Below, one piece after another: positions 8,614-42,475 of a stretch of DNA of 64,000 nucleotides (position 1 is the stretch's first letter; the number at the start of each line of letters is the position of its first letter). The notes under the pieces are model-generated. The model made no database searches, had not been told where the DNA came from, and saw only the letters and a list, made by a program, of their open reading frames with translations. Both the position numbers and the translations under genes were made by a program. This DNA comes from Mycoavidus cysteinexigens (lineage in GTDB: Bacteria > Pseudomonadota > Gammaproteobacteria > Burkholderiales > Burkholderiaceae). The DNA lies in contig JASSUB010000007.1 in assembly GCA_031963205.1 (NCBI GenBank), forward strand, positions 808-64,807. The letters run 5' to 3'.

Positions 8614-8622
8614 TCTTATAGC

Positions 8623-16635: not shown

Positions 16636-16658
16636 CCGCCTATGGCCATTATCTAGAT

Positions 16659-17600: not shown

Positions 17601-17640
17601 GTCGGTCTGCACCTCACCCTGGGCATGGAGGGCTTAATTT

Positions 17641-18128: not shown

Positions 18129-18794
18129 TTAACAATATTTCTTATAATACTTAGCCATGGTCCATACCAGCAAGGCGCAAAAGCTCACGACAGGTAAAAA
18201 CAAAATCTCAAACGGGAGTTTGACTGGCGCCACCAACCACCCAATTGCCGCCAGTGGCAACAAGCCAAATTTTAGCCAACGCTTCGCCCGATGATAACGA
18301 GTGGCTGACTCATGGCCGCCGTTTTCTCGGCGAATCACTCGCGCGACCAAGCCATCGATCAGAGCCACGCCGATAATCAGGCCAAACTTAGGCGCCACCA
18401 GGATCAGCAACGCAAGCCGTACACCGAATAACTGCAGAGCATACATGGCAATCAAAATAGGCTCGCGCAAATTGCTCAAGGATAAATTTCGATACTCTGC
18501 CACCGGCGACTGTATCGCAAGTTCAATCCTATTCCAGCCAAACCAACACCAATAAGCCCAGCCAGCAGCGTGTTGAGCTAACTCTAAATTGGTACACTGC
18601 GCTAAATAATAGTGCAGCAAAGCCTGCATCGCCGCAATCGAGTCCGCGCGCCAACTGTAGTACCCTGCAAGCCAACAAGCCAACACCGCGAGCACTGAAA
18701 TAACGACGATCCACAGCAGCAGATTAAGGGTTGCTCGCAGCACCCAAAAAAACTCTCGTAGGCTCTCGTCATCCGCTTGAGATTTAGAGCGCAT
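18129..18794 (-). CDS. ICE membrane protein, DUF4400/PFL_4697-like
   Basis: N-terminal TM, LFGVRLALLIL, ALIDGLVARVIRRENGGHESATRYHRAK (cf. DGLVRRDLRRFGAGRES); sits downstream of traD as in PFGI-1 ICEs. Confidence 0.85.
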   Translation of the reverse strand: MRSKSQADDESLREFFWVLRATLNLLLWIVVISVLAVLACWLAGYYSWRADSIAAMQALLHYYLAQCTNLELAQHAAGWAYWCWFGWNRIELAIQSPVAEYRNLSLSNLREPILIAMYALQLFGVRLALLILVAPKFGLIIGVALIDGLVARVIRRENGGHESATRYHRAKRWLKFGLLPLAAIGWLVAPVKLPFEILFLPVVSFCALLVWTMAKYYKKYC

Positions 18795-20757
18795 CACGTG
18801 GTCCTGAGGTGCGCTCACGCAGCGCCTCAAACACTGCTTCTAAAACCCACTGCTGGCTCGCCTGGTCATGTTCTTCCGTGACCAAAGGTAAACGCAATTT
18901 AACCAATTGCCCGCCATCGATTAAAGCAAATGCCTGCCCTTTGGGCAATTGCGTTAAATCTGCTGGCTGCAGCATCGGGACCTCGCGGGCAGTCCAGGTG
19001 TCTTGGGTGGCGGCGGAGAAATCTGCAAATTCTCCCGGCTCATCCATGTCACGCGTACTCGAGCCGGTACTGCGCGACCAGATTTCAACGGTAGGCAACT
19101 GCTCAATCAAAATAGCTGCTGTGCTAGGATTTTTTACCCGCAGCATGATTAACGTGTTGAAGTTGCCAAACATCTGTTGGGCTTTTGCTCTAGAACCGAT
19201 TTTTGCTTCAAGATCTGCATCCGTTTGAGTTAATGCGGTGACACGTAGGCCAGTCCCTCCCGCCTTGTTAAGCAGCGGAATAAATTCATCGCCGCACAGT
19301 TCATTAAATTCATCGGCATATAGACTCACATCACGCCGCCTACCAGAGCGGGTTTGGCCAAAGCCCGTGCCGTATTTATACATACGCCCGGCGGTGGAGG
19401 TAAGATCCGCAAACATGGCATTGCCCACTGCTGCTGCGACTTCAAAGTCAGACAGCGCATCTAAACCAATATACACAATCTCGCCTTGGTCAATCACCTG
19501 CGGCCAATCAAAAATGGCGCGCGGATCATGCGGGTTATCGTATTGGGGAGAAAGAAGCTCAGAAATTTTACCTGTGGTGAGTTTTTCTAGAAGCGGATAT
19601 AACGACGAAACCAATTTTTCAAAGTAACTGCGATCATTGGCTAATATGGATGAGAGCGCATCGGCAATTGGATCATGCCAGCCCTGCTCTTTAATCAGCG
19701 CAAGCATTTGCAATGCAGATAATGCACGGCCCGTTTTACGAGCCTGTTCTTGTAGCGATTTACCCGGCTCTTTGATTTTTTCTCGCCAAACCGGGTGCGC
19801 CTGATTCAGCCAAAATTCAAAATACTGAATACATAAATCGTCGATATTAACCGCGTGCTGATAGACTAACTCATAGGTCGGTTTCATGCCCAATGCGGAT
19901 AGTGCGCGCGCCATAACATTCACAAAACGCCAGACAAATTCCTTGAACACCGCACTTTGGCCTGCGCTTGGCAGTTGGTTGCTCACCCGCGTGGCAACCT
20001 CGGTAACCCTTGAAAAAGTGCTGATCGGGCTATAGCGTGCAGAAGACTCTGGATACCCTAAATGAAACACGTAAAATAGATCTTCGCGCTGGGCTCGTTT
20101 AGCTTCAGTGTACATCCGCAACAGTAAATCCACGTCACCTTTAGGATCGAAGACAATCACCACATCGCCACGTCGAATATCCTGGCTGACCTGAATCTCC
20201 ACATAGCGAGTTTTACCCACTCTGGTGGTACCGAGCACTAAGGTATGGCCGACCCGCTCACGCAGATCCGTATAAATGTCGCGCTCATGCACTTCGACAC
20301 CATGTAGCGCTGGTTCACCACCGGCTGGCGGCAAACGCGAAACGACAGGTCGCAGGCCCCCTATGCGTATGAACTTGCTCAACCAAGCACTAAAATACTG
20401 ACGCTCATCACCCGCACATAAATGCCGGTTTTGGGGCAATCTAGCCCAATACAGCCGCTGTGTATGCTCTGCTGTCCAGCGAAAACCTCGTCCAAGAAAT
20501 TGTTCTTGAGTGGAAACTGGAATATCTCGTGCCTCTATTTCATAACTTGGCAAGCGTCTTAAGTTGCGTTGAAAGCGAATAATACAGCTTGCCTGATAAG
20601 CTCTAATGAATGCTAACAACAGCATGCTCAGCGTAAAAATTAAACCTAATCTCGGCGTCACTAGAAATGTTTTATGCCAAAACCACATGCTGCCGCAAGC
20701 AATCAGTGCTGAGATAGAGGAAACCAACTCGACCGGTTTACGGAACAGATTGTTCAT
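18784..20757 (-). CDS. traD: Type IV coupling protein TraD (PFGI-1/SXT class)
   Basis: FLGRGFRWTAEHTQRL, Walker A GHTLVLGTTRVGKT, VFDPKGD, YYDRITSSL-like YFEKLVSSL, Walker B ADEFNEL..DEFIPLLNKAGG. Confidence 0.93.
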   Translation of the reverse strand: MNNLFRKPVELVSSISALIACGSMWFWHKTFLVTPRLGLIFTLSMLLLAFIRAYQASCIIRFQRNLRRLPSYEIEARDIPVSTQEQFLGRGFRWTAEHTQRLYWARLPQNRHLCAGDERQYFSAWLSKFIRIGGLRPVVSRLPPAGGEPALHGVEVHERDIYTDLRERVGHTLVLGTTRVGKTRYVEIQVSQDIRRGDVVIVFDPKGDVDLLLRMYTEAKRAQREDLFYVFHLGYPESSARYSPISTFSRVTEVATRVSNQLPSAGQSAVFKEFVWRFVNVMARALSALGMKPTYELVYQHAVNIDDLCIQYFEFWLNQAHPVWREKIKEPGKSLQEQARKTGRALSALQMLALIKEQGWHDPIADALSSILANDRSYFEKLVSSLYPLLEKLTTGKISELLSPQYDNPHDPRAIFDWPQVIDQGEIVYIGLDALSDFEVAAAVGNAMFADLTSTAGRMYKYGTGFGQTRSGRRRDVSLYADEFNELCGDEFIPLLNKAGGTGLRVTALTQTDADLEAKIGSRAKAQQMFGNFNTLIMLRVKNPSTAAILIEQLPTVEIWSRSTGSSTRDMDEPGEFADFSAATQDTWTAREVPMLQPADLTQLPKGQAFALIDGGQLVKLRLPLVTEEHDQASQQWVLEAVFEALRERTSGPRDAL

Positions 20758-20788
20758 ACAGGGCTTCGTGCAAACGCTACGTTAAGGC

Positions 20789-21814
20789 CTAGTCCGCCTG
20801 CGGGCGGCTAGGCCATAAGCTCAGAGCACTATCCTGCGCCTCAAGGTAGGCAGGAAAAGCCAGCTGCGTTTCGGTTGAGGCTTCGGTTGAGGCTTCGGTT
20901 GAGGCTTCGGTTGAGGCTTCGGTTAAGGCTTCGGTTGCAGATGAATTGGATACTCCCTCAGACACAGGCGTCACTAATCCAGTCTTGGCCCTAGCTGCTT
21001 GGCCAGCACGCGCCGCGATGCGGGCCATGGGGTTACTTTGAGATTCACGACTCAACGCGTCGAACAACTCATTCAGCACCGGCGGATGTTCACCTAACCA
21101 AGCTAACACTGGCCGCGGAATGAACCATTGTAGAAAAATCAAGGCTAACTGGCCCGTTTGACGATAATCTAAGCACTGCGATGACGGATCAGGCTGAACC
21201 GGCTCGAAGGTATACCACGCACCGCCTTGCTCGCGCATCGTGCCGCCGAGCACGATCCAGGGCCTGCGTTGGCCCCCTTGGGCATCGCAGATCTCCACCC
21301 CCAAAGCCGCCAAGCCTTGCGCCACTCCTTGTAGCACAGCCATCGCCAGCACCGCATAGCTGTAACGGGCAGCTAAGCGCGCTTGCTCTTCAGCACCGCC
21401 ACCCACTGGCAGGGCATAGGCATTTCGATAATGCAACGCATCTCGAGCAAGCGACATGATATGCATAAACAAACTACGGTTCTGGCTCGGCTGGGCGGTT
21501 AGCGTAGTGGGCAATAATTGCACAAATTCACCGCAGCACTGTAACAACGGCTCAACGTCGCGGCTGAAATTTTCTGGCGTAAAAGCCAGGTGCTGACGAA
21601 GCCTATCCAATACGTGGCGTGCGCCGGTACGCTCGATTAATTCCTCATATGGCAGTATCGGCAGATGACGTGTGCTTGGTGCTTGGGTGGTTGCGCTAGC
21701 CATCACCGGTAAGCGGCGCCTTAAAGGCTCACCATAACGCACCCCACAAACAGCCAGCCCGCACCCCACGGCCAGCCCGTATAACCAATCATGTTCAAAC
21801 CAAGCGAGCAGCAT
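20789..21814 (-). CDS. TraI_2/MOBH relaxase-like protein, catalytically degenerate and C-terminally truncated
   Basis: Fold landmarks FVQLLP, ALHYRNAYALPVGGGAEEQARLAARYSYAVL and WIVLGG...Y match MOBH. PASExHHH is replaced by PTTLTAQP and HDxGK by QGVAQ. N-terminal hydrophobic segment; upstream of traD. Confidence 0.75.
   Translation of the reverse strand: MLLAWFEHDWLYGLAVGCGLAVCGVRYGEPLRRRLPVMASATTQAPSTRHLPILPYEELIERTGARHVLDRLRQHLAFTPENFSRDVEPLLQCCGEFVQLLPTTLTAQPSQNRSLFMHIMSLARDALHYRNAYALPVGGGAEEQARLAARYSYAVLAMAVLQGVAQGLAALGVEICDAQGGQRRPWIVLGGTMREQGGAWYTFEPVQPDPSSQCLDYRQTGQLALIFLQWFIPRPVLAWLGEHPPVLNELFDALSRESQSNPMARIAARAGQAARAKTGLVTPVSEGVSNSSATEALTEASTEASTEASTEASTETQLAFPAYLEAQDSALSLWPSRPQAD
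20870..20937. repeat. 12-bp tandem repeat TTCGGTTGAGGC (4 perfect, 1 with one mismatch, 1 partial) encoding EAST repeats
   Basis: Read directly; translates on the minus strand as TEALTEASTEASTEASTEASTE in the relaxase-like tail. Confidence 0.95.
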
Positions 21815-22245
21815 AGCCAGTCCGTATCGATTGCAGCGCAGTGAAAAATATCACTTTAAGCAAAAAGCCGGCTCGGCCGAAAATTTGAGTGCACGCACTG
21901 CCATCACGTCGTGCACCCAACTACATGACAAAGCTACTTTATGCTATTAAACTGTAAAGTTTTATTGCTTTCTCTTAATCATTTTTGCTTTATTAAAAAA
22001 ACCTTTATTCTTATTCAATCGAATTCAAAAAAATATCTAACTTATTGTTTTATATTAATTTTTAAACAAGTAAAAATTATATTTTTCCATTCAATTTATT
22101 ACTGTTAATTATTAAAATAAAAATAAACCTCATAAAATGACTGCGCAGTGTACCCACACATCGTGCAAGCAAATTACAGACAGCCGCCAATACATTTTCT
22201 AAAGTATGTCTTGTCGGTCGCTTCCTCTTGCGCCGACAGGTCTTT

Positions 22246-22281
22246 CCCGCCAGGTGTGATCCCCCCCTGGCGGGGTTTTTT
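22246..22281 (+). terminator. Intrinsic terminator-like hairpin in the virB11 leader
   Basis: Stem CCCGCCAGG/CCTGGCGGG followed by GTTTTTT, ending 15 nt before ATG 22297. Confidence 0.7.
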
Positions 22282-22296
22282 CTCAACCTCAAAAAA

Positions 22297-23385
22297 ATGC
22301 AAGACATGGATAAGTCCACCGCCACCATGGCCAAGCAGGTTCTAGATGAGCATTTACGGCCCATTCGCCCGCTGCTAGATGATCTCGAGGTGCAAGAAGT
22401 GATGATCAATCGCCATGACAATATTTGGTTTGAACGCAACGGCAAGATGATGTATTTGGCCGACATACAACTGGCTCAAGCGAGTCTTGAAGCATCGATT
22501 ACCTTACTCGCCAATTTAAATGGTAAGCCCGATGCATTGATTATGGATTGTCAGTTACCTGGTTTGCGCATCGCCAGCGCACGCCGGCCAGTGACCATCC
22601 ACGGTCCAATGCTCTGTGTCCGAAAGCATATGGCACACCACCTTAGCTTGCCAAATTATGTGGCGAGTGGCGCGTTTAATACCTTGCCGCACCCCCCCCA
22701 GAACTCGCCTCAAGATGCTCCCCTGACGACCTCCCCCAGTGCGTCTCTATGCCAGGCCATGCAAACCGGCGGCCAAGCCTTGCAACAGTTTTTTGAGTGG
22801 GCCATTCATTCCCGCCAAAATCTGATTGTCTGCGGTTCGACTTCATCAGGTAAAACAACGCTGCTGAATGCATTAATTGAAGTGATTCCTAACGACGACC
22901 GACTGATCACTATCGAGGACACTCGCGAACTCCAAGTACGCGCCCCTAATTACGTATCGTTTGAAGCCCACCCGGCCCGAGGCGTCAATCTGCGCGAGCT
23001 GGTCCGACTGTCCCTACGTTGCCGGCCGACACGCATCATCGTAGGTGAAATCCGCGGCGCGGAGGCCTTTGACCTGATGGATGCACTCAATACGGGCCAC
23101 CCTGGCTCAGTCGTTTCATTTCATGCTAACTCTGCCGAATTAGCCCTCACGCGCCTTGAATCATTAATCCGCATGGCGCCTGAAGCCCAAAACTGGCCTT
23201 TGGCCGATCTGCGTCAGCAGATCGCCGCCACTTTCCGCTATGTGGTGCAAGCACAGCGTATCGGTTCTCTACGAGGTCCTTGGGAGATTCGAGAAATCCT
23301 CGGCGTTGCTGGCAAGCGCTATCAAACCCGTTTGCTATTTTCCAAAATCCGACAAGCAGCAACGGCTTATGACACTGTTCAATAA
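22297..23385 (+). CDS. virB11: VirB11/TrbB-family traffic ATPase
   Basis: QEVMINRHDNIWFER, Walker A GSTSSGKTT, TIEDTREL, Walker B IIVGEIRGAEA, His box TGHPG..SFHA. Start chosen after the leader hairpin and is uncertain. Confidence 0.9.
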   Translation: MQDMDKSTATMAKQVLDEHLRPIRPLLDDLEVQEVMINRHDNIWFERNGKMMYLADIQLAQASLEASITLLANLNGKPDALIMDCQLPGLRIASARRPVTIHGPMLCVRKHMAHHLSLPNYVASGAFNTLPHPPQNSPQDAPLTTSPSASLCQAMQTGGQALQQFFEWAIHSRQNLIVCGSTSSGKTTLLNALIEVIPNDDRLITIEDTRELQVRAPNYVSFEAHPARGVNLRELVRLSLRCRPTRIIVGEIRGAEAFDLMDALNTGHPGSVVSFHANSAELALTRLESLIRMAPEAQNWPLADLRQQIAATFRYVVQAQRIGSLRGPWEIREILGVAGKRYQTRLLFSKIRQAATAYDTVQ

Positions 23386-23686
23386 GCTCAAATTTGGAGT
23401 ACACATGACAATATTTATCTGGCTGTTATGCACCTGGTCATCTTATGCTTATGCAGGCATCTGGGGCGGCGGTTTGTGCCGATTTTATAAACAGGTCGTC
23501 GATGACGAATTGATCGCCTTTGTGAGCATCGGTTCATGCGCGCTCGCCATTATTTTATGGATGCTAGATGACAAATCGTCCGCCATTAAATTATGGATTC
23601 TGCGGATCGTGGCGGCAACGCTCATGATCTTCAATCTCCCCATTTTCTGGACGACCATCTTTGGTCGCTCGCCAGTCTGTGGTTAA
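23369..23686 (+). CDS. virB2: VirB2/TrbC-family pilin
   Basis: Signal-like segment ending SYAYA followed by two hydrophobic helices; between virB11 and virB3. Confidence 0.75.
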   Translation: MTLFNKLKFGVHMTIFIWLLCTWSSYAYAGIWGGGLCRFYKQVVDDELIAFVSIGSCALAIILWMLDDKSSAIKLWILRIVAATLMIFNLPIFWTTIFGRSPVCG

Positions 23687-23711
23687 ACCAAAAAATAGCG
23701 CAAGAGCATGT

Positions 23712-24035
23712 ATGTCTAGCCCACCTCCTCCCCTTCATGCCCCAGTCAAAAAAGTGCTGATTGAGCGTAAGCGCTTACTGGCGGTGGACCAGCGCATACT
23801 AGTGGTGCTGCTGGTGAGCGTATTTGTGGTGGCGGCCACTTTGCACAATTATTGGGTTTTGCTCGCTGCCCTGCCAGGTTACGGCGGCATGTGGCTCGCC
23901 AGCCGACGAGACCCTGATCTACTTGATATCTACCTCAAATACCGACACCAAGCAGGCCATTACGAGCCCCGTCAACAACTCCGGCAAACACGCCATCAGC
24001 GTCCATTAGGCTTTGCTCGCAAACACCTATGTTAA
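23712..24035 (+). CDS. virB3: VirB3/TrbD-family membrane protein
   Basis: LIERKRLLAVDQR, two TM segments, RRDPDLLDIYLKY; overlaps the virB4 start. Confidence 0.82.
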   Translation: MSSPPPPLHAPVKKVLIERKRLLAVDQRILVVLLVSVFVVAATLHNYWVLLAALPGYGGMWLASRRDPDLLDIYLKYRHQAGHYEPRQQLRQTRHQRPLGFARKHLC

Positions 24036-26662
24036 ACCTTAAACACCCCGGCACCAGCCCTTTTGAGCATGAATCACTGACCGCCATCGGCCAGCGCCAT
24101 AACGCAGGGGTACGCACGTGCGCCGAACTCGTGCCGTGGCTTTTTGCTTGCAATCAGCAGACTCTAGTCTGTAAAGATTCTTCCTTGCTCGCGGCCTTCG
24201 AGTATAGCGGTCCAGATACTGACAGCATCACGGCTGGCAGTATGCTCAAATTAATTGAAGATTTAACGCAATCTCTAGTGAGTCTATGCCATCAACCGAT
24301 CACTCTCTGGTGGACTGTCTATCGCCGGCAAATCAGCGGCTATGACACGCTACCGCTACCAGACCTGTACGCTCAGATAGTTGACGACGAACGGCGGCGC
24401 GCCTTTGAACAAAGCGGTAGTTACCTAAACCACCACTATCTGACCATCACCCAGCCACCTGAGGTAGGCCTAGACCGCTTCTCCGGCAAACTCTCCCATG
24501 CTTTATCGCACGATGGCCTACCGCTTTACAAAGCGCTCTGGCAAGCGGTGCGCGGCACCTTCTCCGACCAGTACGCATTTGCCTATACTGCTGATGAGTT
24601 AGACCATCAAGTAGAGGACTTTGAAGCATTATTAAGCGCCTTGCTGGCTGGCCTGCCCAACCTCAAGTGTACGCGCTTAAGCGGCGATCGACTTGGCGCT
24701 TTCTTGCACGCCGCTTGTTCACCCTGTGCCGAAGATAAAACCACCGCGGGCATCTCCGATCACCCCTTTCTGGATGTCGCACTACCCGATACGGAAGTGA
24801 TCCCCGGCCACGATTTTTTGTCTTTTGAGGGCAATGGCTGCAAACGTTACGCGTTGGCGCTCAGCGTCCCGGTCGCTCGCGAGAACTGGCCCGACCAGGT
24901 CGCACCCACGACCCTTGACGACTTACTCAAGATTAATGGGGAACTCACCCTCAGCCATGTTTTCCGCCTCGCCAGCCGAGCTCGGGCAGAACGTTTTATC
25001 GATAGTATGCGCAAATATCACGATAACCGACGGCTAGATATACGTGGACTGCTCAGTGCGGCCTTAAAAAAAGGCGACACCGAAAAAGTCGGGCAGAACC
25101 GAGCGCGGGCCCAAGCCGCAAATGAGGCAGAGACCCTGCGCGGCGAGGTGTCAATGAGCCAAGAAGCATACGGCTGGTACAACCTCACGATTCTTGCCTG
25201 GTCACCGGTATTTGCAGCCGGTGGGCCTGATGTTGCGCAGGCCACAAGCGCCGCGCACTCTGCTTACACGCAAGCAAGCGCCACCTGTAAAGCCGCCGAA
25301 GAAATCATGCGCGCCGCCCATTTTATGCCGGTGCGCGAAAAACTTCATGCCCTGTCAGCTTTTACCGTGACCATTCCCGGCATGTGGAGTGAGTGCGCCC
25401 GCTGGGCCTTTATTGATGCCCAGGTACTCGCGCGGCTTGCGCCCCTATGCACGGTCGCCCAAGGCGAACGCTATAACCCACACCTGAGCCAGGAAATGGG
25501 CATTGATTGCCCTGCCTTAGCGACCTTTCCAACCGAATACGGCACCCCTTTTCATTTCACCGGCTACTTTCATGATGTCGGACATGTGCTGCTATGTGGC
25601 GACTCCGGCTCCGGCAAAACTGCGTTTCTCAATCTGAGTTGGACGCTTTTTCGCAAATATCCAGGGGCCATGATTTACTTATTCGACAAAGATTATTCCT
25701 CCCGCATTCCGGTGCTGATGCAAGGGGGGACTTATCTAGATATCCAGCCCGAAAACGAGCATAGTGCCCGCTTCAATCCAGTCGCCTTGCTAGCGCATGA
25801 ACGTCACTTTGAATGGCTCAAAGACTGGATTCTATTTTTAGGCAGCTTACGCGGCTATACCCCTAATGCTCAAGATGACGCGCAACTCGTCAACGCCCTC
25901 CGTGCAACGCACCATATCGATCGCAAACTTTGGCAACTGCACGCGATTTATAGTCAGCTGCCCGATGGGTCCTTCAAACAACAACTGGCGGCGTGGGTAG
26001 GGAGTGGCGTTTACGCTCATTATTTCGACAATCTGGAAGACAGCTTTGCCAGCACCAGCATTATGGGTATTGAGTTAGGCAAGATTATCCACAATTCACT
26101 GGTGGCCCCAGCGCTGCTCGATTTATGCTTTTATCAGATTGACGATACGCTCACCAGAAACCGGCTAAATGGCAAAATCGCCCCGACCTTTATCGGCTTG
26201 CCAGAAGTATGGCACCTGCTTGATAACCCGCGCTTTGCCAACAAAATCGTAGATTGGGTCAGCACCTTGCGCAAAAAGCTCGGCTGCGTCTGGATGGATA
26301 CGCAGTCTCCCGAAAGCTACCTTAATTCACCGGTTTATCCAAGCCTGCGTGACAATGTGCCGACCTGCATTTTCTTGCCGCCTAGCGGCAACCTCGCCCC
26401 TTCGCAACGCGAGGCACTAGAAACTGGCTTCGGTTTACATGCGGGTCAAATCCACGGCATCGAAAAAGGCACGCGCAAACGCGATTATTTCATTACTCAA
26501 AAAAACGGCTTTGCGCGGCGCCTCTCGCTTACCTTGGATCGCAGGACACTTGCCATACTACGCAGCGAACTGAGTGCACAAGCGATTTTCGAGCGCCACT
26601 ACCGCTCCGGCCACGCCGCTTGGCAAGCGCGTTACTTTGAAGAAATGACCCATGTTAGCTAA
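24029..26662 (+). CDS. virB4: VirB4/TrbE ATPase
   Basis: KDSSLLAAFEYSGPD, DVGHVLLCGDSGSGKT (Walker A), FDKDYSS, TLRKK. Walker B reads FIGLPEVW. Confidence 0.9.
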   Translation: MLNLKHPGTSPFEHESLTAIGQRHNAGVRTCAELVPWLFACNQQTLVCKDSSLLAAFEYSGPDTDSITAGSMLKLIEDLTQSLVSLCHQPITLWWTVYRRQISGYDTLPLPDLYAQIVDDERRRAFEQSGSYLNHHYLTITQPPEVGLDRFSGKLSHALSHDGLPLYKALWQAVRGTFSDQYAFAYTADELDHQVEDFEALLSALLAGLPNLKCTRLSGDRLGAFLHAACSPCAEDKTTAGISDHPFLDVALPDTEVIPGHDFLSFEGNGCKRYALALSVPVARENWPDQVAPTTLDDLLKINGELTLSHVFRLASRARAERFIDSMRKYHDNRRLDIRGLLSAALKKGDTEKVGQNRARAQAANEAETLRGEVSMSQEAYGWYNLTILAWSPVFAAGGPDVAQATSAAHSAYTQASATCKAAEEIMRAAHFMPVREKLHALSAFTVTIPGMWSECARWAFIDAQVLARLAPLCTVAQGERYNPHLSQEMGIDCPALATFPTEYGTPFHFTGYFHDVGHVLLCGDSGSGKTAFLNLSWTLFRKYPGAMIYLFDKDYSSRIPVLMQGGTYLDIQPENEHSARFNPVALLAHERHFEWLKDWILFLGSLRGYTPNAQDDAQLVNALRATHHIDRKLWQLHAIYSQLPDGSFKQQLAAWVGSGVYAHYFDNLEDSFASTSIMGIELGKIIHNSLVAPALLDLCFYQIDDTLTRNRLNGKIAPTFIGLPEVWHLLDNPRFANKIVDWVSTLRKKLGCVWMDTQSPESYLNSPVYPSLRDNVPTCIFLPPSGNLAPSQREALETGFGLHAGQIHGIEKGTRKRDYFITQKNGFARRLSLTLDRRTLAILRSELSAQAIFERHYRSGHAAWQARYFEEMTHVS

Positions 26663-27467
26663 GCTGCATAAGCATTCTTGGCACACGCTTTGGTGCCTCA
26701 TCGGACTCTGCTTGGTTACGCCTACCCTAGCAGGCGGTGGCGTAGGAACGCCCATCGGCGGCGCCACCGAATTAACGCAGATCATGAATCACGCCGAGTT
26801 GCTAACCAGCGTCAGCCAACAAAGCACCATGGTCGCCCAAAATATCACCGCACACATTACGCGCGCACAGCAATATATGGCGATGCTGCAAAATCTTGCG
26901 CAACTGCCGGCCCATGTTTTAGAACAAATTATGGCGCCCTGGCAACATCAGTTGCAAGCGTTTATGCAACTTGCCCATTCAGTTGACGCACTATTAGACG
27001 CCACCCAGCAAACAGGCGCTTTATTTAAGCGCAGCCTAAGCGAAATCACGCAGCTTAACCTAGCCCCCCAACAATGGCTATCAGCCTATAGCAATTTAGC
27101 TAAAAACCGAGACAGCCTGTATCAGCAACAATGGCAACAGGATCTAGTCGCCCTCGATACGCTCGCGAATCGCGCACGCAGTGTCCACAGTCTATCGAGT
27201 CAAATTCCAGGTATCGGGAGCACCATCCAAGGCCTGCAGCTTCTCAACCAGCAAGCCTCGATCCTAGCTGCTGAAATGCTCGAATTACGTGCTTTGATGC
27301 AGCGCCAGATGGCTCTGCAAACGCAAGATCGGTTGGAACAAGAATGGGCGAACAGCGCCCTCTTCGATCTGCTCCGGGCACGTCAAGCGCACGCACAGCA
27401 ACTCGATACGCACGAGCGCCAACTGATCAACCACGGCCCATTCAATGTCTTACAAGATCAACCATAG
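26652..27467 (+). CDS. trbJ: TrbJ/VirB5-like protein
   Basis: Signal peptide, IGGATELTQIMNHAEL (TrbJ 'GGATEWTQLANN'-like), Q-rich helical body, GTIQGLQLLNQ. Confidence 0.8.
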   Translation: MLAKLHKHSWHTLWCLIGLCLVTPTLAGGGVGTPIGGATELTQIMNHAELLTSVSQQSTMVAQNITAHITRAQQYMAMLQNLAQLPAHVLEQIMAPWQHQLQAFMQLAHSVDALLDATQQTGALFKRSLSEITQLNLAPQQWLSAYSNLAKNRDSLYQQQWQQDLVALDTLANRARSVHSLSSQIPGIGSTIQGLQLLNQQASILAAEMLELRALMQRQMALQTQDRLEQEWANSALFDLLRARQAHAQQLDTHERQLINHGPFNVLQDQP

Positions 27468-27486
27468 GTCATTGAGGAGACGCACC

Positions 27487-27765: not shown

Positions 27766-27769
27766 CTCG

Positions 27770-28789: not shown

Positions 28790-28809
28790 ATAGCCAGAGA
28801 CTGACCACC

Positions 28810-32608: not shown

Positions 32609-32624
32609 GCTTGCCAAAGCCGCT

Positions 32625-35677: not shown

Positions 35678-36221
35678 TCGCTTTCCCCCTCACCCTATGA
35701 GGCTGGGAGTCATACCCATCGTGCTGTATTTACTGAGCATTTTCAGCCTCGCTAGCGCTCAAACAGTGCCTACAGTAGGCGAGCTCATGCAACTAGAAAG
35801 CCAACTCAAACTACAAAAACTGAAAAACGAGCTGACTCAGACTAACCCCATGCCTCCAGGGCAGCTTAACAGTAGGCTGATGATGACAAACATGCCACCG
35901 CTTGACTCGGCGCTTGCTAAATCCGCAGAGCACCCTCGTTACATTGCCGCTTTTGGCATTGCCCCCGAGTATCGCGGCTATCTCACTTGGGGGGAACAAA
36001 TCTATCCTCTCTATCCCGGGGCAATAGTCCGTCGCGCTACAGTGATCGAGCTCACCCCCCAAAACGTGAAATTGCGCTATCCAAACGGCCGGATTCGCTC
36101 AATTCCATTCGCTTTCGATACTCGCATTGCATGGCCTATCACCGCGGCGCCCTCAACGCCACCGGATCTGCCGCCATTGCCAGCCGCCACCAAACCATTG
36201 CGCCCTTCGGTCGAGCCTTAA
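35664..36221 (+). CDS. pilP: Type IVb pilus protein PilP
   Basis: Signal peptide, TVGELMQLESQ, C-terminal beta domain, Pro-rich tail; position in the pil operon. Confidence 0.75.
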   Translation: MPAINRFPPHPMRLGVIPIVLYLLSIFSLASAQTVPTVGELMQLESQLKLQKLKNELTQTNPMPPGQLNSRLMMTNMPPLDSALAKSAEHPRYIAAFGIAPEYRGYLTWGEQIYPLYPGAIVRRATVIELTPQNVKLRYPNGRIRSIPFAFDTRIAWPITAAPSTPPDLPPLPAATKPLRPSVEP

Positions 36222-36260
36222 ACCACGCCGCCACGAGGCCTTCAGCAAAAGTAGCTGCCC

Positions 36261-38165
36261 ATGCTCTCCAAATTGATCCCCAAACCGAATCGCTCCAACC
36301 CGCACAGCACCCGTGAAGCGCTGCATTTTCGTCGCGCCAGCCGGACGGCCACAGCCCCTCAAGCGAACTCGACTATCCCGCGGCTCACGCAAGCCAATAC
36401 GGTGATCAACTTACCCAATGAGTTGCCCTATTTCGTGCGCACCCTGTATGAAGAAATCTCTCTACAAGCCTCGCTACGAAACCAAATTTGCCCAATCCTG
36501 ATGGCACCTGCAACAGAAAAAATGCAGCGTGGCCGTTTCGCTCTGATTGTGCTGGATACCATGCTGCGCTCAGATATCACCGAGGAGATTGTACGGCAAT
36601 TAAGCACCCGCTACGTCCCGGCCGAGCCCTTCTATTATGTTGCAGCGCCGACCTTAATGATTGAATTATGCCGCGCTCGCAGCGAGCCGCACGGCAACCT
36701 TCAGCTAGCGGACAGCGCCGCAAAAAAGCCGGATGATAGTGCCTTGTGGGCCCATTTTTTAACCGCAGCACGCTTTGCAATCGCTCACAGCGCTTCCGAT
36801 ATCCATCTGGAAATTCGGCGCACGCAAGAACGCTCGCCAATCGGTTTTCGGGTGGCTGGGCGCTTGGTTCGCCCCTCAGCCTTCCATATGTTCACAGCGC
36901 ATTTGACCGATATGGCCGCGATTATCTATTCTCGCGGCAACTCAGTGTCCGAATCAATTTTTAACGAAAATTATGCCCAGCAATGCCAAGTGCCAGCCAC
37001 CATCGATAACCAGAAGATTCTGTTCCGCTTAGCCACCTTTCCACTGGTCAGCGGTACCGATGTGGTATTGCGTTTACTGTTTCAAGACGACGCCCAAACC
37101 ATTCGCTCGCTGGCAGACTTAGGCTATCTACCTGACCAAGTCGCACTGTGGCAACGCGCCATAGCCCGCTTAAGCGGCGCGACGATTGTCGCCGGCGTGG
37201 TCAATTCTGGCAAATCGACCACGATGCAAACCGTGCTAGCCCGTATGCCAGTTTGGCATAAAAAATTCTCCATTGAAGATCCGGTTGAATATCTAATCCC
37301 AGGGGTTTCTCAAATCTCGATCGCCCGCTCGCTCAGCGAGCAAGACCATCACATCGACCCGTTTCTGACCATCAAACGGCAGCTCAAACGCGGCGACTTA
37401 GACGTTTGTTTTATCGGTGAGGTTCGAGACCGGCAGAGCGCTGCTTTGTTGCGCGACATTGCCGAGTCCGGCCATCGTGCTTTCACCACACTACATACCC
37501 CTTCTGCCATTGGCATTGTAGATCGTCTCTCCGATCACGAACTCGGTATCCCACGCGAAATACTTGCGACCCCTGGCTTTCTCAATCTACTGATCTACCA
37601 AACCCTGCTGCCGACACTCTGCCAGCATTGCAAAATACCTGTGGCTGAACTGATGCGTCCCGCAAACGCTCGAACGCATCACTTGGCCCAACTCGCCGAA
37701 CTGTTTCCAGACTCAGATCTATTTACCCTAGCCGAAGGGCTGACCGGCTATCTTGCACGTATTGTCCGCTGCTTTAAAATCGAACCCTTCAATGACCCGC
37801 AAAGGCTTGGCTTTTTTTGCCGTAACCCAAATGGCTGTGGGCACTGCCAGCGCGCAGGATTACCTGAGTTGAATGGCTTACAGCATCGCACGGTGGTCGC
37901 TGAAATGTTCGAGTTAGACCGATCCATGCTCCAATTAATCCGTGCCCATAAAAATCTAGAACTGCACCAATATCTTTACAACTTGCATAAAGCCCCGCTC
38001 GACGCCGCGCCGACCAGCGGTAAATCTGTCCTGGAAATTGCGCTTTATAAAGCCTTGCAAGGTGAGATCGATTTGCTTGATATTGAAGCCAAATTCGGCT
38101 CATTTCTACACTATGAACAACAGTTAAAACTGCATAGGAGCACGCGATGCATTCGCCACCCCTGA
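36261..38165 (+). CDS. pilQ: Type IVb pilus assembly ATPase PilQ (GspE/PulE family)
   Basis: ASDIHLE, Walker A GVVNSGKST, SIEDPVEY, FIGEVRD, TTLH, CxxC pairs LCQHC and GCGHC. Confidence 0.92.
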   Translation: MLSKLIPKPNRSNPHSTREALHFRRASRTATAPQANSTIPRLTQANTVINLPNELPYFVRTLYEEISLQASLRNQICPILMAPATEKMQRGRFALIVLDTMLRSDITEEIVRQLSTRYVPAEPFYYVAAPTLMIELCRARSEPHGNLQLADSAAKKPDDSALWAHFLTAARFAIAHSASDIHLEIRRTQERSPIGFRVAGRLVRPSAFHMFTAHLTDMAAIIYSRGNSVSESIFNENYAQQCQVPATIDNQKILFRLATFPLVSGTDVVLRLLFQDDAQTIRSLADLGYLPDQVALWQRAIARLSGATIVAGVVNSGKSTTMQTVLARMPVWHKKFSIEDPVEYLIPGVSQISIARSLSEQDHHIDPFLTIKRQLKRGDLDVCFIGEVRDRQSAALLRDIAESGHRAFTTLHTPSAIGIVDRLSDHELGIPREILATPGFLNLLIYQTLLPTLCQHCKIPVAELMRPANARTHHLAQLAELFPDSDLFTLAEGLTGYLARIVRCFKIEPFNDPQRLGFFCRNPNGCGHCQRAGLPELNGLQHRTVVAEMFELDRSMLQLIRAHKNLELHQYLYNLHKAPLDAAPTSGKSVLEIALYKALQGEIDLLDIEAKFGSFLHYEQQLKLHRSTRCIRHP

Positions 38166-39301
38166 CCAAACTGCAGCAACTATGGCAAGTCATGAGTAGC
38201 AGATACAAGCCCAATTTCAAGCGGCGCTTGCGCTGGGCCCAGCGGCGCTTCCACCAAAAACGTGCTGAATTCTATCTTGATCTGGCGAGCCAAATCGAAG
38301 TACAGCCAGGGCAAACACTGGCCCTATTTTTACAAAAATATGCCCTACGCTACCCAGGCGAACCGATCGGCATTGTGTGCGCTCACTGGCTCGTGCGCTT
38401 CGAAGAAACGGCCCGCTTCTCGCGAGCCGTCACCCAAACGCTTCCTCCCGAAGAGGTTACCGTGCTTGCCGTTGCTGAAGAATCAGGTGATCTTAAAATA
38501 GGGCTACGCACCTTAGCAACCAATATCAATGCCCTTGAAGCCACTAAGCATTTATTCCTTTTAATCAATGCCAGCGCGCTCGTCGGCCTGGCCATTTTGC
38601 ATATTTTTTTAGGCCTAATTGGCTATTGGATCGTGCCGAAAATCGAATCTGCGATGAACCTCGATAGCAACCTGTATGGACCGATTGCGCAAACCTATCA
38701 TCTATTTGCCACCGCAATCCGCATGCTTGGCCCAGCTTGGCTGGCCCTACTCGTGGCCGCCTTGATATGGGGCTCTTGGTCAATCAAAAACTATACTGGG
38801 CATTGGCGAGCATGGCTTGATCAACACGTCATCTTTTACAGCGTGCACCGAGATTTTGCCGGTGCGCTGTTCCTCGCGACCATCGCTTCCATCACCCAGA
38901 AAATTGGCGCACGTGCAATCAGCATCCACGAAGCCTTGTTACGCATTAAACCCTACGCGTCCCCTTGGCTTGCTACGCACATTGAGCGGATTTTGCGCAA
39001 TCTTGAAGAAATTCCCAATGCCGGCGGAGAAGCATTTGCCACCGGCATTCTTCAGCGGGAATTCCAGTATCGCCTGCAAGATATTAGCGAATACCAAAAA
39101 CTGGATCTCGCGCTCCTCACCGTCGCCCAATATATTCTGCGCGAAACGCCAAAGCGTATTCAACGAACCGCTACGCTAATCCGCTATAGCCTCTCATGCG
39201 CCACCGTAGTGATCATGATGGGCCTGTATTTTGGGCTACTTGGGATGATTCATGAATTCCAAGCCTCTGCCGCCATGCAAAATATCATCCTGAGCCCCTA
39301 G
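38147..39301 (+). CDS. pilR: Type IVb pilus platform protein PilR (GspF family)
   Basis: RAEFYLDLA, LAVAEESGDL, three TM segments; follows pilQ. Confidence 0.85.
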   Translation: MHSPPLTKLQQLWQVMSSRYKPNFKRRLRWAQRRFHQKRAEFYLDLASQIEVQPGQTLALFLQKYALRYPGEPIGIVCAHWLVRFEETARFSRAVTQTLPPEEVTVLAVAEESGDLKIGLRTLATNINALEATKHLFLLINASALVGLAILHIFLGLIGYWIVPKIESAMNLDSNLYGPIAQTYHLFATAIRMLGPAWLALLVAALIWGSWSIKNYTGHWRAWLDQHVIFYSVHRDFAGALFLATIASITQKIGARAISIHEALLRIKPYASPWLATHIERILRNLEEIPNAGGEAFATGILQREFQYRLQDISEYQKLDLALLTVAQYILRETPKRIQRTATLIRYSLSCATVVIMMGLYFGLLGMIHEFQASAAMQNIILSP

Positions 39302-39375
39302 TCGGCCGCGGCTTGGCTTCTGGTTAGCAGCACAAGCCCCCTCCTTTATTTCATTCACCCGATTTGGAGACCACG

Positions 39376-39957
39376 ATGAAGAAACATTCACGACCACAAC
39401 CCAGCACATTGGTCAGCACTGGGCACCATGCTCAGCCACCTAAAGATCGCCGTCAGCGCGGCTCGGCCATGGCTGAATATGGCTTAATGCTCTTGCTGGT
39501 CTCCTTTGGGCTAGTCGGCACACTGGTTTATTTTTCCACCAATAGCCATATCACACACGCCAACACGCTGGCGATGGATCTCAACACTCTGATTGGTACA
39601 GTGCGTACCGCGTATGCTGGCAATTACGGAGCAATTAACAATACCGCGCTACATCAAGGCGGTTTTTTCCGCTCTATGCCGTCACTCAAAGATAATCACG
39701 GCACAGTAACCGTCTCACCCGGCAATGGCGTACTGATTGTGACCCCTGGCCAAATCAACACAGCCAGCGACGCGGTTCAATACCAAATCACCAACCTACC
39801 CGATATAGCCTGTTTACTGCTTGCTACGGCCCTGGCGCGCAGCGCGGCACGACTCACGCTCAATGCCAGCGAAGTTAAAGCGCCTGGCAGCCAACCCGAC
39901 CCCTCTCAGATCCGCTGTTCAGGCGACGCGAACACACTCACCCTGGTGTTTGGCTAA
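39376..39957 (+). CDS. pilS: Type IVb major prepilin PilS
   Basis: 29-aa leader ending RQRG|SAMAE (G-1, E+5), hydrophobic helix, YAGNYG, D-region Cys pair (IAC...IRC). Confidence 0.9.
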   Translation: MKKHSRPQPSTLVSTGHHAQPPKDRRQRGSAMAEYGLMLLLVSFGLVGTLVYFSTNSHITHANTLAMDLNTLIGTVRTAYAGNYGAINNTALHQGGFFRSMPSLKDNHGTVTVSPGNGVLIVTPGQINTASDAVQYQITNLPDIACLLLATALARSAARLTLNASEVKAPGSQPDPSQIRCSGDANTLTLVFG

Positions 39958-39980
39958 CCGTACTCACGCCGAGAAGCCCC

Positions 39981-41201
39981 ATGAAAACCTTCACTGACAT
40001 CAACTATTTAACCCCTCTGCGCTGGCCCCCTGATCATCGGCACGCTGAGCGACCGCCAAGGCGCGTTGGACGCTCACCCAATCTCGGCTGGCGCAAAAAA
40101 TGCCAACGTGGTTTTATCACCATCGATATAGCATTAGCCATGACACTTTCGACCATTAGCATGGTGGCTGCGGTCTACAAAGTACACACTGAGATTGCGC
40201 AGATTTTTGCAAAATCGACCGGACAGTATCTCTACATCCTACAAACTGGCGTCAATAACTATGTGCAAACTCACTATGACACACTCGCCAATGGCGAGAC
40301 GATTACGCGTATAGAAAATTCGCTTGAGCCAACCGTCGCCGAATTGCGCGCACTCAAATTCCTGCTTCCCACCTTTGCCGATACCAGCCCACTTGGACTC
40401 TCTTTTGCCACCCAACTCAAGCCAGAAAACTGTCCAGGCCTAGCCTGTTCAATCACCGGACTGATTTATTCTAAACACCCTTATCGTGATCAAGAAGGCA
40501 CGCTGCGGATCGATTTGTTAGCTCAGGCCAGATTGGCGGCTGGTGCAGATGCCGCCCTCTCCACCGCGGCCAATGGCGGCCGACTGGTTGGCTTGGATAA
40601 TAAGTGGTGGCAAGCTAACCCGCTAGGCAACGTAGCCGGCACGCTAGCCGCACGAGTAGGCGCTGTGACAGGTAATTTAACTTGGCAACTGAAACAGCTG
40701 TACAAACTAGATGGCTCACGCCCATTAACCGGCTCAATGAATGCCGGTGGGCAAGCTATCCTCCACGCTAAAACCATGGCAACAGAATGGCTGGCAGCAA
40801 ATGACGCCATGGTGCAAAAAAAACTCACCGCGCACAATTTACAATTAACCCGCTTGGCGCCAGCAGGTGCGAGTTGCGATGAAGGATATGGCGCGATTGC
40901 CATCGATCGCTCTGGTTTTCTATTGACCTGTCAAGCCGGTATTTGGCGCTCAGGCAGCGCACAAAGTTTCACTGGCTGGCAGTCTCTGCCAGCGTCCGGA
41001 TGCGTGCAGCAAAACGGCTTGCTACTGGCCACCTCACACTACAATACGCATATGGTGGGCCGCACCTCTGGCATGGTGCGCTTTGAAGACTATAAACGCG
41101 ACAAATATGGGCAGGGCAAAAACAGTGCATTGATGCCAATCATGCAAGGGGAATGCTTCGAAATCCAGGGCGCAGAAAGAGTCTGGTTTATGGGCATGTA
41201 A
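39981..41201 (+). CDS. pilV: Type IVb minor pilin/tip adhesin PilV (shufflon-type)
   Basis: CQRG|FITID prepilin site, PTVAELRALKFL, LYKLDGSRPLTGSMNAGG, LLTCQAGIW constant/variable junction. Confidence 0.87.
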   Translation: MKTFTDINYLTPLRWPPDHRHAERPPRRVGRSPNLGWRKKCQRGFITIDIALAMTLSTISMVAAVYKVHTEIAQIFAKSTGQYLYILQTGVNNYVQTHYDTLANGETITRIENSLEPTVAELRALKFLLPTFADTSPLGLSFATQLKPENCPGLACSITGLIYSKHPYRDQEGTLRIDLLAQARLAAGADAALSTAANGGRLVGLDNKWWQANPLGNVAGTLAARVGAVTGNLTWQLKQLYKLDGSRPLTGSMNAGGQAILHAKTMATEWLAANDAMVQKKLTAHNLQLTRLAPAGASCDEGYGAIAIDRSGFLLTCQAGIWRSGSAQSFTGWQSLPASGCVQQNGLLLATSHYNTHMVGRTSGMVRFEDYKRDKYGQGKNSALMPIMQGECFEIQGAERVWFMGM

Positions 41202-41230
41202 AGCGTTCACACCTGCTCAGTTGCCTGCTG

Positions 41231-42475
41231 ATGAGCCCTCTTTCAAAGCCAAGCCATGCGCCAAACCGCATGCAGTTGCCTAGCTTAATTTATTACAGCC
41301 TTGCCGGCACAGCCATTGCCCTTATTGCCTGGTTTCCTGGCCACTGGCTAGTCAGTTTAGCGCTGCTACCCTGGCTCTGGCGCAAAGCGCATACACACTG
41401 GCAAGTGACGGCACTTTGGCTGGGCTATTACCTGACTGGGGCACGCGATATTCCGCTGATATGCGCACGCTTTTTCAGCGGCCACGAAGAGCTGTCTGCC
41501 AGCTTGGGCTATATGCTAGGCATCGGTTTTTGGTTAGCGCAAGCGGTCTTGCTTGCACTCCCCTGGTCGCTATTCCACCCCGCGTCCAAAACATCTGTAG
41601 CCAAAATCATGATCCGGGTATTTATCGCCCTCTTCTGCACCAATCTACCGCCGCTTGGCATCATTGGCTGGCTATCTCCGCTGCATATCAGCAGCGCACT
41701 CTTTCCAGCTTGGGGAGGGTTAGGTTTACTCCTTGGCCTCGGGACACTTTGCCTTGCCGCTGTGCGTCCCGGCAATCGTCAAACAATATGGCTTATCTTA
41801 TGTTTAGCTAGCCTGGCTCTAAGCGCACATAAAAATGAAACTCGCCCGACCATACCTGCCGGCTGGCTAGCACTTGATTTACAACTTGGCCGACTTGATC
41901 AAAGCACGCTACCTGCATTATTTAAGCGCACCGAGCAAGTGCAAAGCGCGCTCTCACAAGCACTCTCCCAACCTACCACCACAGTGGTTGTCTTACCAGA
42001 AGAAATTATCGGACTCTGGCGGCCAGCTTTGGCTTTTTGGTGGCAAGAACAGATACGCCAAGCGGCGCGTCAGGGTCAAACCTTTTTACTTGGCGCCGAT
42101 CTCCTTAAGCAAGAAATTCCGCTACGCTACACCAATAGTGTCTTGGCATTCGGCCACTACCCAGCTCGCTTAGATAGCCGTATGCCGATGCCAGCCGGCC
42201 TCTGGCGCCCAGGCAGCGCAATCAGCGCAATAGCCGGAAAACTCGGACAACCTTACCTCAAACTTGGCGACCTTCAAACCGCGCTTTCGATCTGCTATGA
42301 AGACTTTTTATGGTGGCCGCATTGGCGCCTATTCTTCGCACCACCGGAGGTCCTCATTAGCGTGGCAAACCAATGGTTTAGCAGCGATTTGCCTCTAGCC
42401 GAAATGCAACAACAAAGCATCCATTCCCTGGCTCGACTGGTTAGAGTTCCAATCGTGCGCTCGACTAATCGCTGA
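41231..42475 (+). CDS. Conjugal TraB-like membrane protein with CN-hydrolase (Lnt-like) domain
   Basis: Multiple N-terminal TMs, GIIGWLSPL, VVLPEE, SRMPMPAGLWRP (Ti TraB 'ERMPVP..MWQP'-like), SICYED, SVANQW. Confidence 0.78.
   Translation: MSPLSKPSHAPNRMQLPSLIYYSLAGTAIALIAWFPGHWLVSLALLPWLWRKAHTHWQVTALWLGYYLTGARDIPLICARFFSGHEELSASLGYMLGIGFWLAQAVLLALPWSLFHPASKTSVAKIMIRVFIALFCTNLPPLGIIGWLSPLHISSALFPAWGGLGLLLGLGTLCLAAVRPGNRQTIWLILCLASLALSAHKNETRPTIPAGWLALDLQLGRLDQSTLPALFKRTEQVQSALSQALSQPTTTVVVLPEEIIGLWRPALAFWWQEQIRQAARQGQTFLLGADLLKQEIPLRYTNSVLAFGHYPARLDSRMPMPAGLWRPGSAISAIAGKLGQPYLKLGDLQTALSICYEDFLWWPHWRLFFAPPEVLISVANQWFSSDLPLAEMQQQSIHSLARLVRVPIVRSTNR

Follow-up and report, generated by a model that had tools for sequence, protein, structure and literature searches.

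A VirB-type type IV secretion system (T4SS) combined with a type IVb pilus is, by gene content and order, a known conjugative backbone. Plasmid pMOL28 of Cupriavidus metallidurans CH34, typed by MOB-suite as MOBH / MPF_T and conjugative, encodes VirB11-B2-B3-B4-TrbJ-B6, a TraI_2 protein, TraD, DUF4400, VirB8-B10, TcpQ and PilN-V, and its pil and trb/tra backbone is reported to be syntenic with the megaplasmids pHG1 and pRALTA (PMC2864759). Burkholderia cenocepacia pTY921B has a full-length MobH relaxase and carries the pil cluster TcpQ-PilN-O-P-Q-R-S-V after virB10. Here we describe a locus of the same composition in Mycoavidus cysteinexigens, a fungal endosymbiont, as the earlier note on this DNA had surmised in proposing a eukaryotic, probably fungal, host. 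The locus occupies positions 18129-42475 of a 64-kb stretch (contig JASSUB010000007.1; hereafter the window). We read it as the immobilised remnant of a MOBH/VirB conjugative element with a type IVb pilus whose machine now serves a host-related purpose in the fungus, a reading that we think probable, with some reserve.

Megablast of the 24-kb region against plasmids gave no match, and relatives were detectable at the protein level only. The closest are chromosomal and plasmid elements of Paraburkholderia, Pandoraea, Trinickia and Burkholderia (among them L011-L032, L086 and pTY921B), with identities of 62-72% for TraD, about 50% for VirB4 and about 52-57% for VirB11; the TraD range also takes in Achromobacter and Robbsia. 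In 20-odd genomes of these six genera, traI (~700 aa)-traD-DUF4400 faces virB11-B2-B3-B4-trbJ-B6. The order of virB followed by pil recurs on the metagenomic contigs L006 and L007. The earlier suggestion of an undescribed system therefore fails, since free-living Burkholderiaceae commonly show the divergent layout, and pMOL28 and pTY921B show the full one with pil genes.

What sets Mycoavidus apart from its closest relatives is the absence of a full-length MobH (~700 aa, both motifs), of the TraD tail, of a VirB1-type transglycosylase and of the small gene that precedes traI. In L086, the closest of all (TraD 72%), a transglycosylase gene precedes virB11, a 153-aa gene precedes the 702-aa TraI, and a tyrosine integrase directly follows DUF4400. 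Transglycosylase (SLT) genes flank virB11 and virB10 in L086, pTY921B and pMOL28, whereas Mycoavidus lost both, and from the ParB/PFL_4669/DUF3158/Ssb backbone of pTY921B it retains only the PFL_4669 homologue. The plasmid pMOL28 differs in being a replicating molecule with replication, partition, Ssb and primase genes, in keeping two transglycosylases and in splitting the operon otherwise (virB8-10 and pil diverge from virB11-B6-traI-traD); its identity to Mycoavidus is low.

Two further groups of systems offer points of comparison. The R64/IncI1 thin pilus shares a PilL-type lipoprotein, PilN, PilO, PilP, PilQ, PilR, PilS and PilV with the window, but no PilT transglycosylase, PilU, PilM or shufflon/Rci was found in the Mycoavidus cluster. 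R64 pairs its thin pilus with an I-type (Dot/Icm-like) T4SS, whereas the Mycoavidus pilus is paired with a VirB-type one. Rickettsiales rvh, Bartonella VirB/VirD4, Brucella VirB and Bordetella Ptl are, like the Mycoavidus locus, chromosomal, non-mobile VirB-type systems under selection in host-restricted bacteria, and Brucella VirB and Bordetella Ptl function without a coupling protein. Substrates of these systems have been demonstrated or strongly supported, and none of the systems is known to have a co-transcribed type IVb pilus module; Mycoavidus also stands apart in its fungal host and in the remnants of relaxase, coupling protein and DUF4400 visible at different stages of loss. How Rickettsia has conserved a reduced T4SS is treated in PMC2653234. 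Literature searches turned up passing mentions only of the Mycoavidus T4SS, with genome papers noting a T4SS in Mycoavidus and Glomeribacter.

The channel and pilus operon

On the map of open reading frames (ORFs), a minus-strand traI*-traD-DUF4400 operon (traI* denoting the truncated relaxase gene) diverges from a plus-strand train that runs unbroken as virB11-B2-B3-B4-trbJ-small ORF-B6-B8-B9-B10-pilL-N-O-P-Q-R-S-V-traB. Families were assigned by Pfam and NCBIfam profile searches on the window ORFs (Table 1). Both the map and the profiles agree with the co-oriented train and its divergence from the traD operon as first described, and the reading frames do abut or overlap at 30461/30462, 31757-31760 and 34370. 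The gene list drawn up earlier was likewise right, except that it omitted the small ORF between trbJ and virB6 and that its 'pilL' is really a fusion of a VirB9 domain with TcpQ.

The train encodes an MPF_T T4SS with VirB3, VirB4, VirB6, VirB8-B11 and a VirB2-type pilin, the last assigned by position and orthology only. Walker A motifs are intact in VirB11, VirB4, PilQ and TraD. Because its Walker B-like box reads LPEVW where a DE box is usual, VirB4 was suspected of decay; this was ruled out, as Pandoraea and Paraburkholderia relatives share LPEVW. No VirB1-type lytic transglycosylase was matched in the window by tblastn with the SLT genes of relatives; in other systems this enzyme is an accessory, not an essential, component. 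Several gene starts need adjustment. VirB11 probably begins downstream of its TTG, given that annotated orthologues measure 359-362 aa, TraB probably begins ~40-80 codons downstream, and the true start of DUF4400 likely gives a protein of ~221 aa.

The T4SS and pilus modules join at the PilL-like protein, in which a VirB9 C-terminal domain is fused to a TcpQ domain behind a signal peptide with LLSLLC. All Mycoavidus lineages examined have this fusion, whereas in pMOL28 and pTY921B the second VirB9-like protein, the transglycosylase and TcpQ are encoded by separate genes. Near the N-terminus of the fusion, a 24-nt tandem repeat in three copies (31839-31910) encodes (D/N)FVQ(A/E)(P/L)(R/K)(P/S), and the BRE-AD045 assembly annotates PilL and PilN as a single 761-aa protein. 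The pilus genes proper are those of an R64-kind type IVb pilus, comprising the PilN secretin, the PilQ ATPase, PilR and a PilS prepilin with a G|xxxxE cleavage site (RG|SAMAE, E at +5); the corresponding site of the PilV-like protein reads RG|FITID, both sites being taken from the translations. No peptidase_A24 (PilU-type prepilin peptidase), recombinase ORF (Rci) or shufflon was found at 39-43 kb. A prepilin peptidase is reported elsewhere in the B1-EB genome (PMC5877345).

The train is preceded by a ~110-nt non-coding leader (~22175-22290, plus strand), whose terminal T-run lies immediately ahead of the virB11 start codon. It is ~90% identical between Mycoavidus clades whose coding dS is ~1 and whose synonymous sites are saturated (L003:458-564; L005:415-516), and its consensus fold consists of two hairpins, the second terminator-like, followed by the T-run. 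The leader matched no Rfam family, with nothing near gathering scores, and was not detected in free-living relatives. It resembles a leader, attenuator or small RNA peculiar to the lineage, and its presence argues for regulated expression. Short contigs at depth 2-4 in three fungal metatranscriptome runs cover virB11, virB2/B3, virB4, trbJ, virB8, pilO and DUF4400 and are suggestive of expression.

Loss of the DNA-transfer module

An exhaustive HMMER search recovered full-length TraI relatives of 688-776 aa with 30-43% identity to the window protein. In the alignment, all full-length relatives have LLPASESHHHAQPGGL and LLHDIGKP, whereas the window protein and its Mycoavidus orthologues have LLPTTLTAQPSQNRSL and VLQGVAQG. 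Compared with full-length homologues, the 3H motif has thus changed from LLPASESHHH to LLPTTLTAQ and the HD motif from LLHDIGKP to VLQGVAQG. TraI* also ends after the TraI_2 core, having lost the middle region and the TraI_2_C domain (~400 C-terminal residues), and tblastn found no remnant of this C-terminal part elsewhere in the window. The protein therefore has the TraI_2 fold but neither the two motifs nor the TraI_2_C domain of a MOBH1/2 relaxase, and it scores 97.9 bits against NF041494 MobH, under the cut-off of 200. In vitro, the prototype MOBH relaxase is reported to require both 3H and HD for cleaving oriT (PMC6736028). Judged by its sequence, with both metal-binding motifs substituted and the C-terminal half gone, TraI* is not a catalytically competent relaxase, in line with the earlier note, which called it catalytically dead. 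We dropped short length as proof of this because the pMOL28 TraI-domain protein has only 413 aa; what counts is that the motifs are missing where the closest homologues have them.

The remnant itself is nonetheless maintained. Within the clade, traI* has a ratio of nonsynonymous to synonymous substitution rates (dN/dS; here and below pairwise Nei-Gojobori estimates rather than tree-based models) of 0.26-0.48, and the ratio is below 1 at p=9e-9 against SF9855. AlphaFold predicts a well-folded core, with residues 45-278 at a pLDDT (predicted local distance difference test) of ~90, and disorder in residues 279-341 and in the loop where 3H used to be. Among PDB folds, the model significantly matches only 3KQ5, a Coxiella burnetii TraI_2 protein that lacks the motifs. 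It belongs to the MOBH3 clade, whose proteins likewise have the TraI_2 fold but neither 3H nor HD; a role other than that of a relaxase has been put forward for them (PMC6736028). In contrast to that clade, TraI* is closest in sequence (43-48%) to motif-bearing full-length relaxases, which points to an independent and recent loss instead of MOBH3 membership by descent. The disordered tail contains (STEA)n, encoded by a 12-nt tandem repeat at 20858-20949. Its copy number varies by strain, one public contig skipping 48 nt and orthologues being 14 aa shorter.

The coupling protein had been described as intact, and this is correct for its nucleoside triphosphatase core. TraD scores above the TIGR03754 cut-off and keeps the Walker A motif GTTRVGKT and the conserved FDPKGD block. 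Its end is not intact, however: Mycoavidus TraD stops 40-70 residues early (3' end of traD, window 18784-18870) and so is missing LTxEGKGxGF, the terminal motif that every Pandoraea, Paraburkholderia and Burkholderia relative conserves. The lost tail may be the part that docks to the relaxosome. In the clade of the window, all members have already lost the relaxase motifs, while traD (dN/dS 0.12-0.17, p down to 4e-20) and DUF4400 (0.17 against SF9855) are still constrained. That TraD was kept after the relaxase died implies that it does something other than classical relaxosome docking. In a side observation, a 428-aa hypothetical protein annotated in the fungus Podila verticillata (P0186) is 94% identical to part of the window TraD and is most likely endosymbiont DNA labelled as fungal in a host assembly.

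Other lineages have gone further. In the AG77-like locus L089, traD is wholly deleted and the traI-traD-DUF4400 operon is reduced to ~400 bp of debris: between virB11 and RES lie only a 102-aa stub made of two traI* pieces, the final 35 codons of DUF4400 and a 215-aa ORF that is unrelated. A second AG77-like genome retains 122 aa of traI as a stub, and B2-EB has no ORF left at the traI start upstream of virB11. Neither the protein search nor a genome scan found a B2-EB or AG77 TraD. As virB and pil genes are constrained in the AG77-like clade without traD, their genus-wide function needs no coupling protein. This deletion and the missing tail of the window TraD weaken the earlier argument from a kept coupling protein to an effector system.

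These observations bear on two accounts in which the machine still handles DNA. First, co-resident Mycoavidus cells could exchange DNA through a relaxase encoded elsewhere or through non-canonical nicking, giving an asexual endosymbiont a means of recombination. The hardware would fit, because the mating-pair-formation set is complete and accompanied by a thin pilus, and so would the purifying selection on TraD and DUF4400 in the clade of the window; moreover, the 413-aa pMOL28 protein (L088:6662-7903) sits beside traD without 3H and HD motifs on a plasmid typed as conjugative. We nevertheless regard DNA exchange as unlikely, considering that the closest TraI relatives (~700 aa) have both motifs, so that the window copy represents a derived loss, that the TraD tail is gone, that virB and pil persist where traD has been deleted entirely, and that the 64-kb window contains no second relaxase. 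Second, the secretin and pilus might capture DNA and a VirB channel independent of a coupling protein might move it, in uptake or in release. The Helicobacter ComB uptake system works without a coupling protein, and the part conserved across the genus likewise lacks one in one Mycoavidus clade, with pilus and secretin both present. Set against this, the locus holds no competence-specific genes, an intracellular niche is poor in foreign DNA, and the data contain no specific pointer to DNA, making uptake or release quite improbable.

Inheritance, constraint and surroundings

The nearest relatives of the TraI-like protein, the PilL-like protein and TraD (85-100% identity) come from Mycoavidus genomes and from Mycoavidus contigs in Mortierellaceae assemblies. 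SF9855, B2-EB and one AG77-like genome have the whole train from virB11 to traB, with genes of matching length; for BRE-AD045, BRE-AD073 and another AG77-like contig, the virB part was seen. We compared the left side of the island in the lineages where this flank is readable. The order ilvD-holC-pepA-lptF-lptG-xre-lysR-RES is identical in SF9855, BRE-AD045 and L089, reaching lgt in L089, and is shared by BRE-AD073 as far as xre, where that contig stops. Measured between the window and L089, dS is 0.83-1.14 for the flanking housekeeping genes and 0.68-1.27 for the virB genes. The same site and equal dS indicate that the island was already in place in the common ancestor and has since been inherited vertically and is immobile, in agreement with the immobilisation postulated earlier.

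Over this distance all virB, pil and traB genes have remained intact, with dN/dS of about 0.09-0.30 at dS ~1 compared with 0.05-0.13 for housekeeping genes. Individual values are 0.13-0.14 for virB11 (dS ~1.2), 0.17-0.21 for virB2 and virB3, 0.09-0.11 for virB4, 0.11-0.17 for trbJ, the small ORF and virB6 (conserved in five other Mycoavidus loci), 0.11-0.20 for virB8, virB9 and virB10 at dS ~1, 0.12-0.30 for pilN, pilO, pilP, pilQ and pilR, 0.17-0.21 for pilS and pilV, and 0.17-0.31 for traB, which is conserved in the SF9855, B2-EB and AG77-like loci. These values, like those of traD, are far from the dN/dS near 1 that the earlier note had named as the sign of relaxed selection.

The structural genes have thus stayed intact while their neighbours decayed, as had been noticed before. 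Genes of the 2-hydroxycarboxylate transporter (2HCT) family at 43476-44900, 53256-53681 and 56680-57980 comprise one intact copy and two degraded paralogues, one of these a C-terminal fragment and the other split in two by a frameshift. The broken copies illustrate ongoing gene erosion around the island. Further to the right, ~3 kb at 61000-64000 contain no ORF above ~70 aa on either strand and are probably heavily degraded sequence. The same contrast argues against a functionless relic whose decay is merely incomplete. Stepwise decay is what one sees on the DNA-transfer side, from the 341-aa dead relaxase through the 122- and 102-aa AG77-like remnants to the absence of an ORF in B2-EB, and the expression evidence is weak; but the 19 virB/pil/traB genes are intact in six independent loci spanning dS ~1, and neutral decay over that distance would have broken them, as it broke the nearby transporter genes, so that we strongly disfavour this explanation and give it the least credence of all.

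Table 1. Features of the locus and its borders, with window coordinates.
Feature	Position	Strand	Basis and remarks
Left border: Xre antitoxin, LysR regulator, RES toxin	16192-18105	+	Pfam; between lptG and DUF4400
DUF4400 / TIGR03747-like membrane protein of integrative and conjugative elements (ICEs)	18129-18830	-	Pfam PF14348 E=8e-21; NCBIfam TIGR03747; last gene of traI*-traD operon
TraD type IV coupling protein, TOL/PFGI-1 class	18784-20757	-	TIGR03754 755 bits, cut-off 647
traI*, N-terminal TraI_2 (MOBH) remnant, 341 aa	20789-21814	-	Pfam PF07514
Divergent AT-rich intergenic control region	21815-22300	.	holds conserved leader
VirB11/TrbB-type ATPase	22228-23385	+	TIGR02788 E=2e-62; Walker A GSTSSGKT
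VirB2/TrbC-like pilin	23240-23686	+	position, 93-aa orthologous ORFs, tblastn to relatives; orthology/position only
VirB3	23661-24035	+	Pfam PF05101
VirB4/TrbE ATPase	24029-26662	+	TIGR00929 E=6e-87; Walker A GDSGSGKT
TrbJ/VirB5-like	26652-27467	+	NCBIfam TrbJ
Small membrane ORF between trbJ and virB6	27445-27765	+
VirB6/TrbL	27770-28789	+	Pfam TrbL
VirB8	28810-29541	+	Pfam VirB8
VirB9	29538-30461	+	Pfam CagX
VirB10	30462-31760	+	Pfam TrbI
PilL-like putative lipoprotein	31757-32608	+	Pfam TcpQ E=3e-24 and CagX, residues 107-197
PilN secretin	32559-34370	+	TIGR02520; Pfam Secretin
PilO	34370-35677	+	position and similarity to pil-cluster genes in L006/L007 only
PilP	35664-36221	+	position and similarity to pil-cluster genes in L006/L007 only
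PilQ ATPase	36261-38165	+	Pfam T2SSE; Walker A GVVNSGKS
PilR platform protein	38147-39301	+	Pfam T2SSF
PilS major prepilin	39364-39957	+	Pfam PilS
PilV-like minor pilin/adhesin	39981-41201	+	32-41% identical to PilV-position genes in L006/L007
Ti-plasmid-type TraB (carbon-nitrogen hydrolase / Lnt-like membrane protein)	41153-42475	+	NF010399 E=3e-104, below curated cut-off; last gene of train
ICE-backbone survivors: PFL_4669/AcaB-family regulator, 88-aa ORF, DUF2857-like protein	45035-47068	-

The island is embedded in the chromosome, with lgt, ilvD, holC, pepA, lptF and lptG to its left and, past ~50 kb, ldcA and tadA to its right. Profile searches detected no integrase, Rep, ParA/B or Ssb domain in window ORFs of at least 80 aa, and tblastn with the ORFs of seven related loci recovered no integrase, SLT, ParB or Ssb remnant in the window, finding only PFL_4669. 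No tRNA was found in the window, and no convincing direct repeats (att) flank the island, whose site is fixed across lineages. The absence of DNA-processing and integration functions asserted earlier is borne out for the window by the relaxase alignment, tblastn and the lack of att repeats. Integrase, Rep, Ssb and ParAB are indeed missing there, but some of the ICE backbone is left: the PFL_4669/AcaB protein (PF08900 E=5e-44; TIGR03761 135 bits, cut-off 110.7; 35% identical to pTY921B PFL_4669) survives right of the train together with a DUF2857-like protein, a weak match of 27.9 bits, below the cut-off of 36.8.

In the left border, a LysR regulator separates the Xre antitoxin from the RES toxin, a three-gene order kept in all Mycoavidus lineages seen, with dN/dS of 0.07-0.17 against L089. 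A further account makes the machine a contact-dependent weapon or exclusion device against other bacteria sharing the hypha. PMC11045733 reports that the RP4 conjugative T4SS can antagonise without any dependence on molecular cargo, and for such a mechanism a coupling protein would not obviously be needed. RES/Xre is a classical cytoplasmic toxin-antitoxin pair, however, and neither toxin-immunity pairs nor XVIPCD-type effectors were seen in the locus, so that a weapon is very unlikely. A 369-aa coiled-coil J-domain protein with an HPD motif (48573-49682, minus strand) was considered as an effector. Plasmids of Cupriavidus, Pandoraea, Robbsia, Burkholderia and Paraburkholderia carry homologues of 60-72% identity, and a protein so common on Burkholderiaceae plasmids lends no specific support. 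Elsewhere in the window, 6S RNA (RF00013, 72 bits) lies at 8438-8617 (plus strand), just downstream of zapA.

A candidate contact machine of an endofungal symbiont

We propose that a MOBH/VirB element with an accessory type IVb thin pilus entered the chromosome beside lptG in a Mycoavidus ancestor and has thereafter been inherited vertically. Its DNA-transfer side has been dismantled, with loss of the relaxase motifs and C-terminus, the integrase, the transglycosylase, the relaxase-associated small protein and the TraD tail, whereas the 19-gene mating-pair-formation and pilus operon has stayed intact under strong purifying selection in every lineage, within otherwise eroding genomes. The envelope-spanning VirB channel and the PilN-PilV pilus would be assembled and used inside fungal cells or at their surface. 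Across the genus, the most likely uses would be adhesion or contact through the pilus and secretion independent of a coupling protein; in the clade of the window, TraD, DUF4400 and the folded dead TraI domain, all under selection, may add coupling-protein-dependent protein transfer. Domestication of the channel and pilus is supported by their constraint; effector delivery or adhesion in the fungus is a candidate role.

Several points weigh against this interpretation. Because pMOL28 is typed as conjugative with a motif-less TraI, motif loss beside TraD is by itself no proof of lost transfer, and 3H and HD mutants of N. gonorrhoeae, in work cited in PMC6736028, reportedly still secrete DNA in vivo. 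The cluster encodes no prepilin peptidase, which leaves the maturation of its pilins to a gene outside it. The searches for a relaxase and an integrase covered the window, and another of either may lie elsewhere in the genome. The loss of traD in one clade means that part of the system is dispensable, and decay could still be proceeding slowly. No substrate or effector is identifiable from the sequence, and the RNA evidence is thin, its depth of 2-4 being such that DNA carry-over may account for it. Among the rival explanations, DNA exchange carries the most weight, followed by DNA uptake or release, interbacterial antagonism and the functionless relic.

A more elaborate form of the host-directed reading, which we offer tentatively and hold to be doubtful, is that the VirB channel and the pilus, joined by the VirB9/TcpQ lipoprotein, form a single symbiosis organelle of endofungal Burkholderiaceae that contacts fungal cells or injects into them. 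The tail-less TraD, DUF4400 and the dead TraI would then be repurposed as receptor for protein substrates, adaptor or substrate, and the operon would be gated by the lineage-specific leader RNA. If true, this would represent an early stage of the route from relaxase to effector.

Endofungal bacteria are an emerging model for the formation of intracellular symbioses, and their molecular contacts with the fungus are largely unknown. The locus is a concrete candidate for a contact machine, fixed since the sampled Mycoavidus lineages diverged and held under housekeeping-like constraint. Exaptation of conjugative T4SSs by host-associated bacteria is well known; what makes this case useful is that lineages stand at different stages of dismantling, with a dead relaxase and a tail-less TraD in one, a stub without TraD in another, and no traI frame upstream of virB11 in B2-EB. 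This series provides natural material on how a conjugation system is converted and on whether a coupling protein is needed, and since B1-EB and B2-EB are culturable, genetics is feasible.

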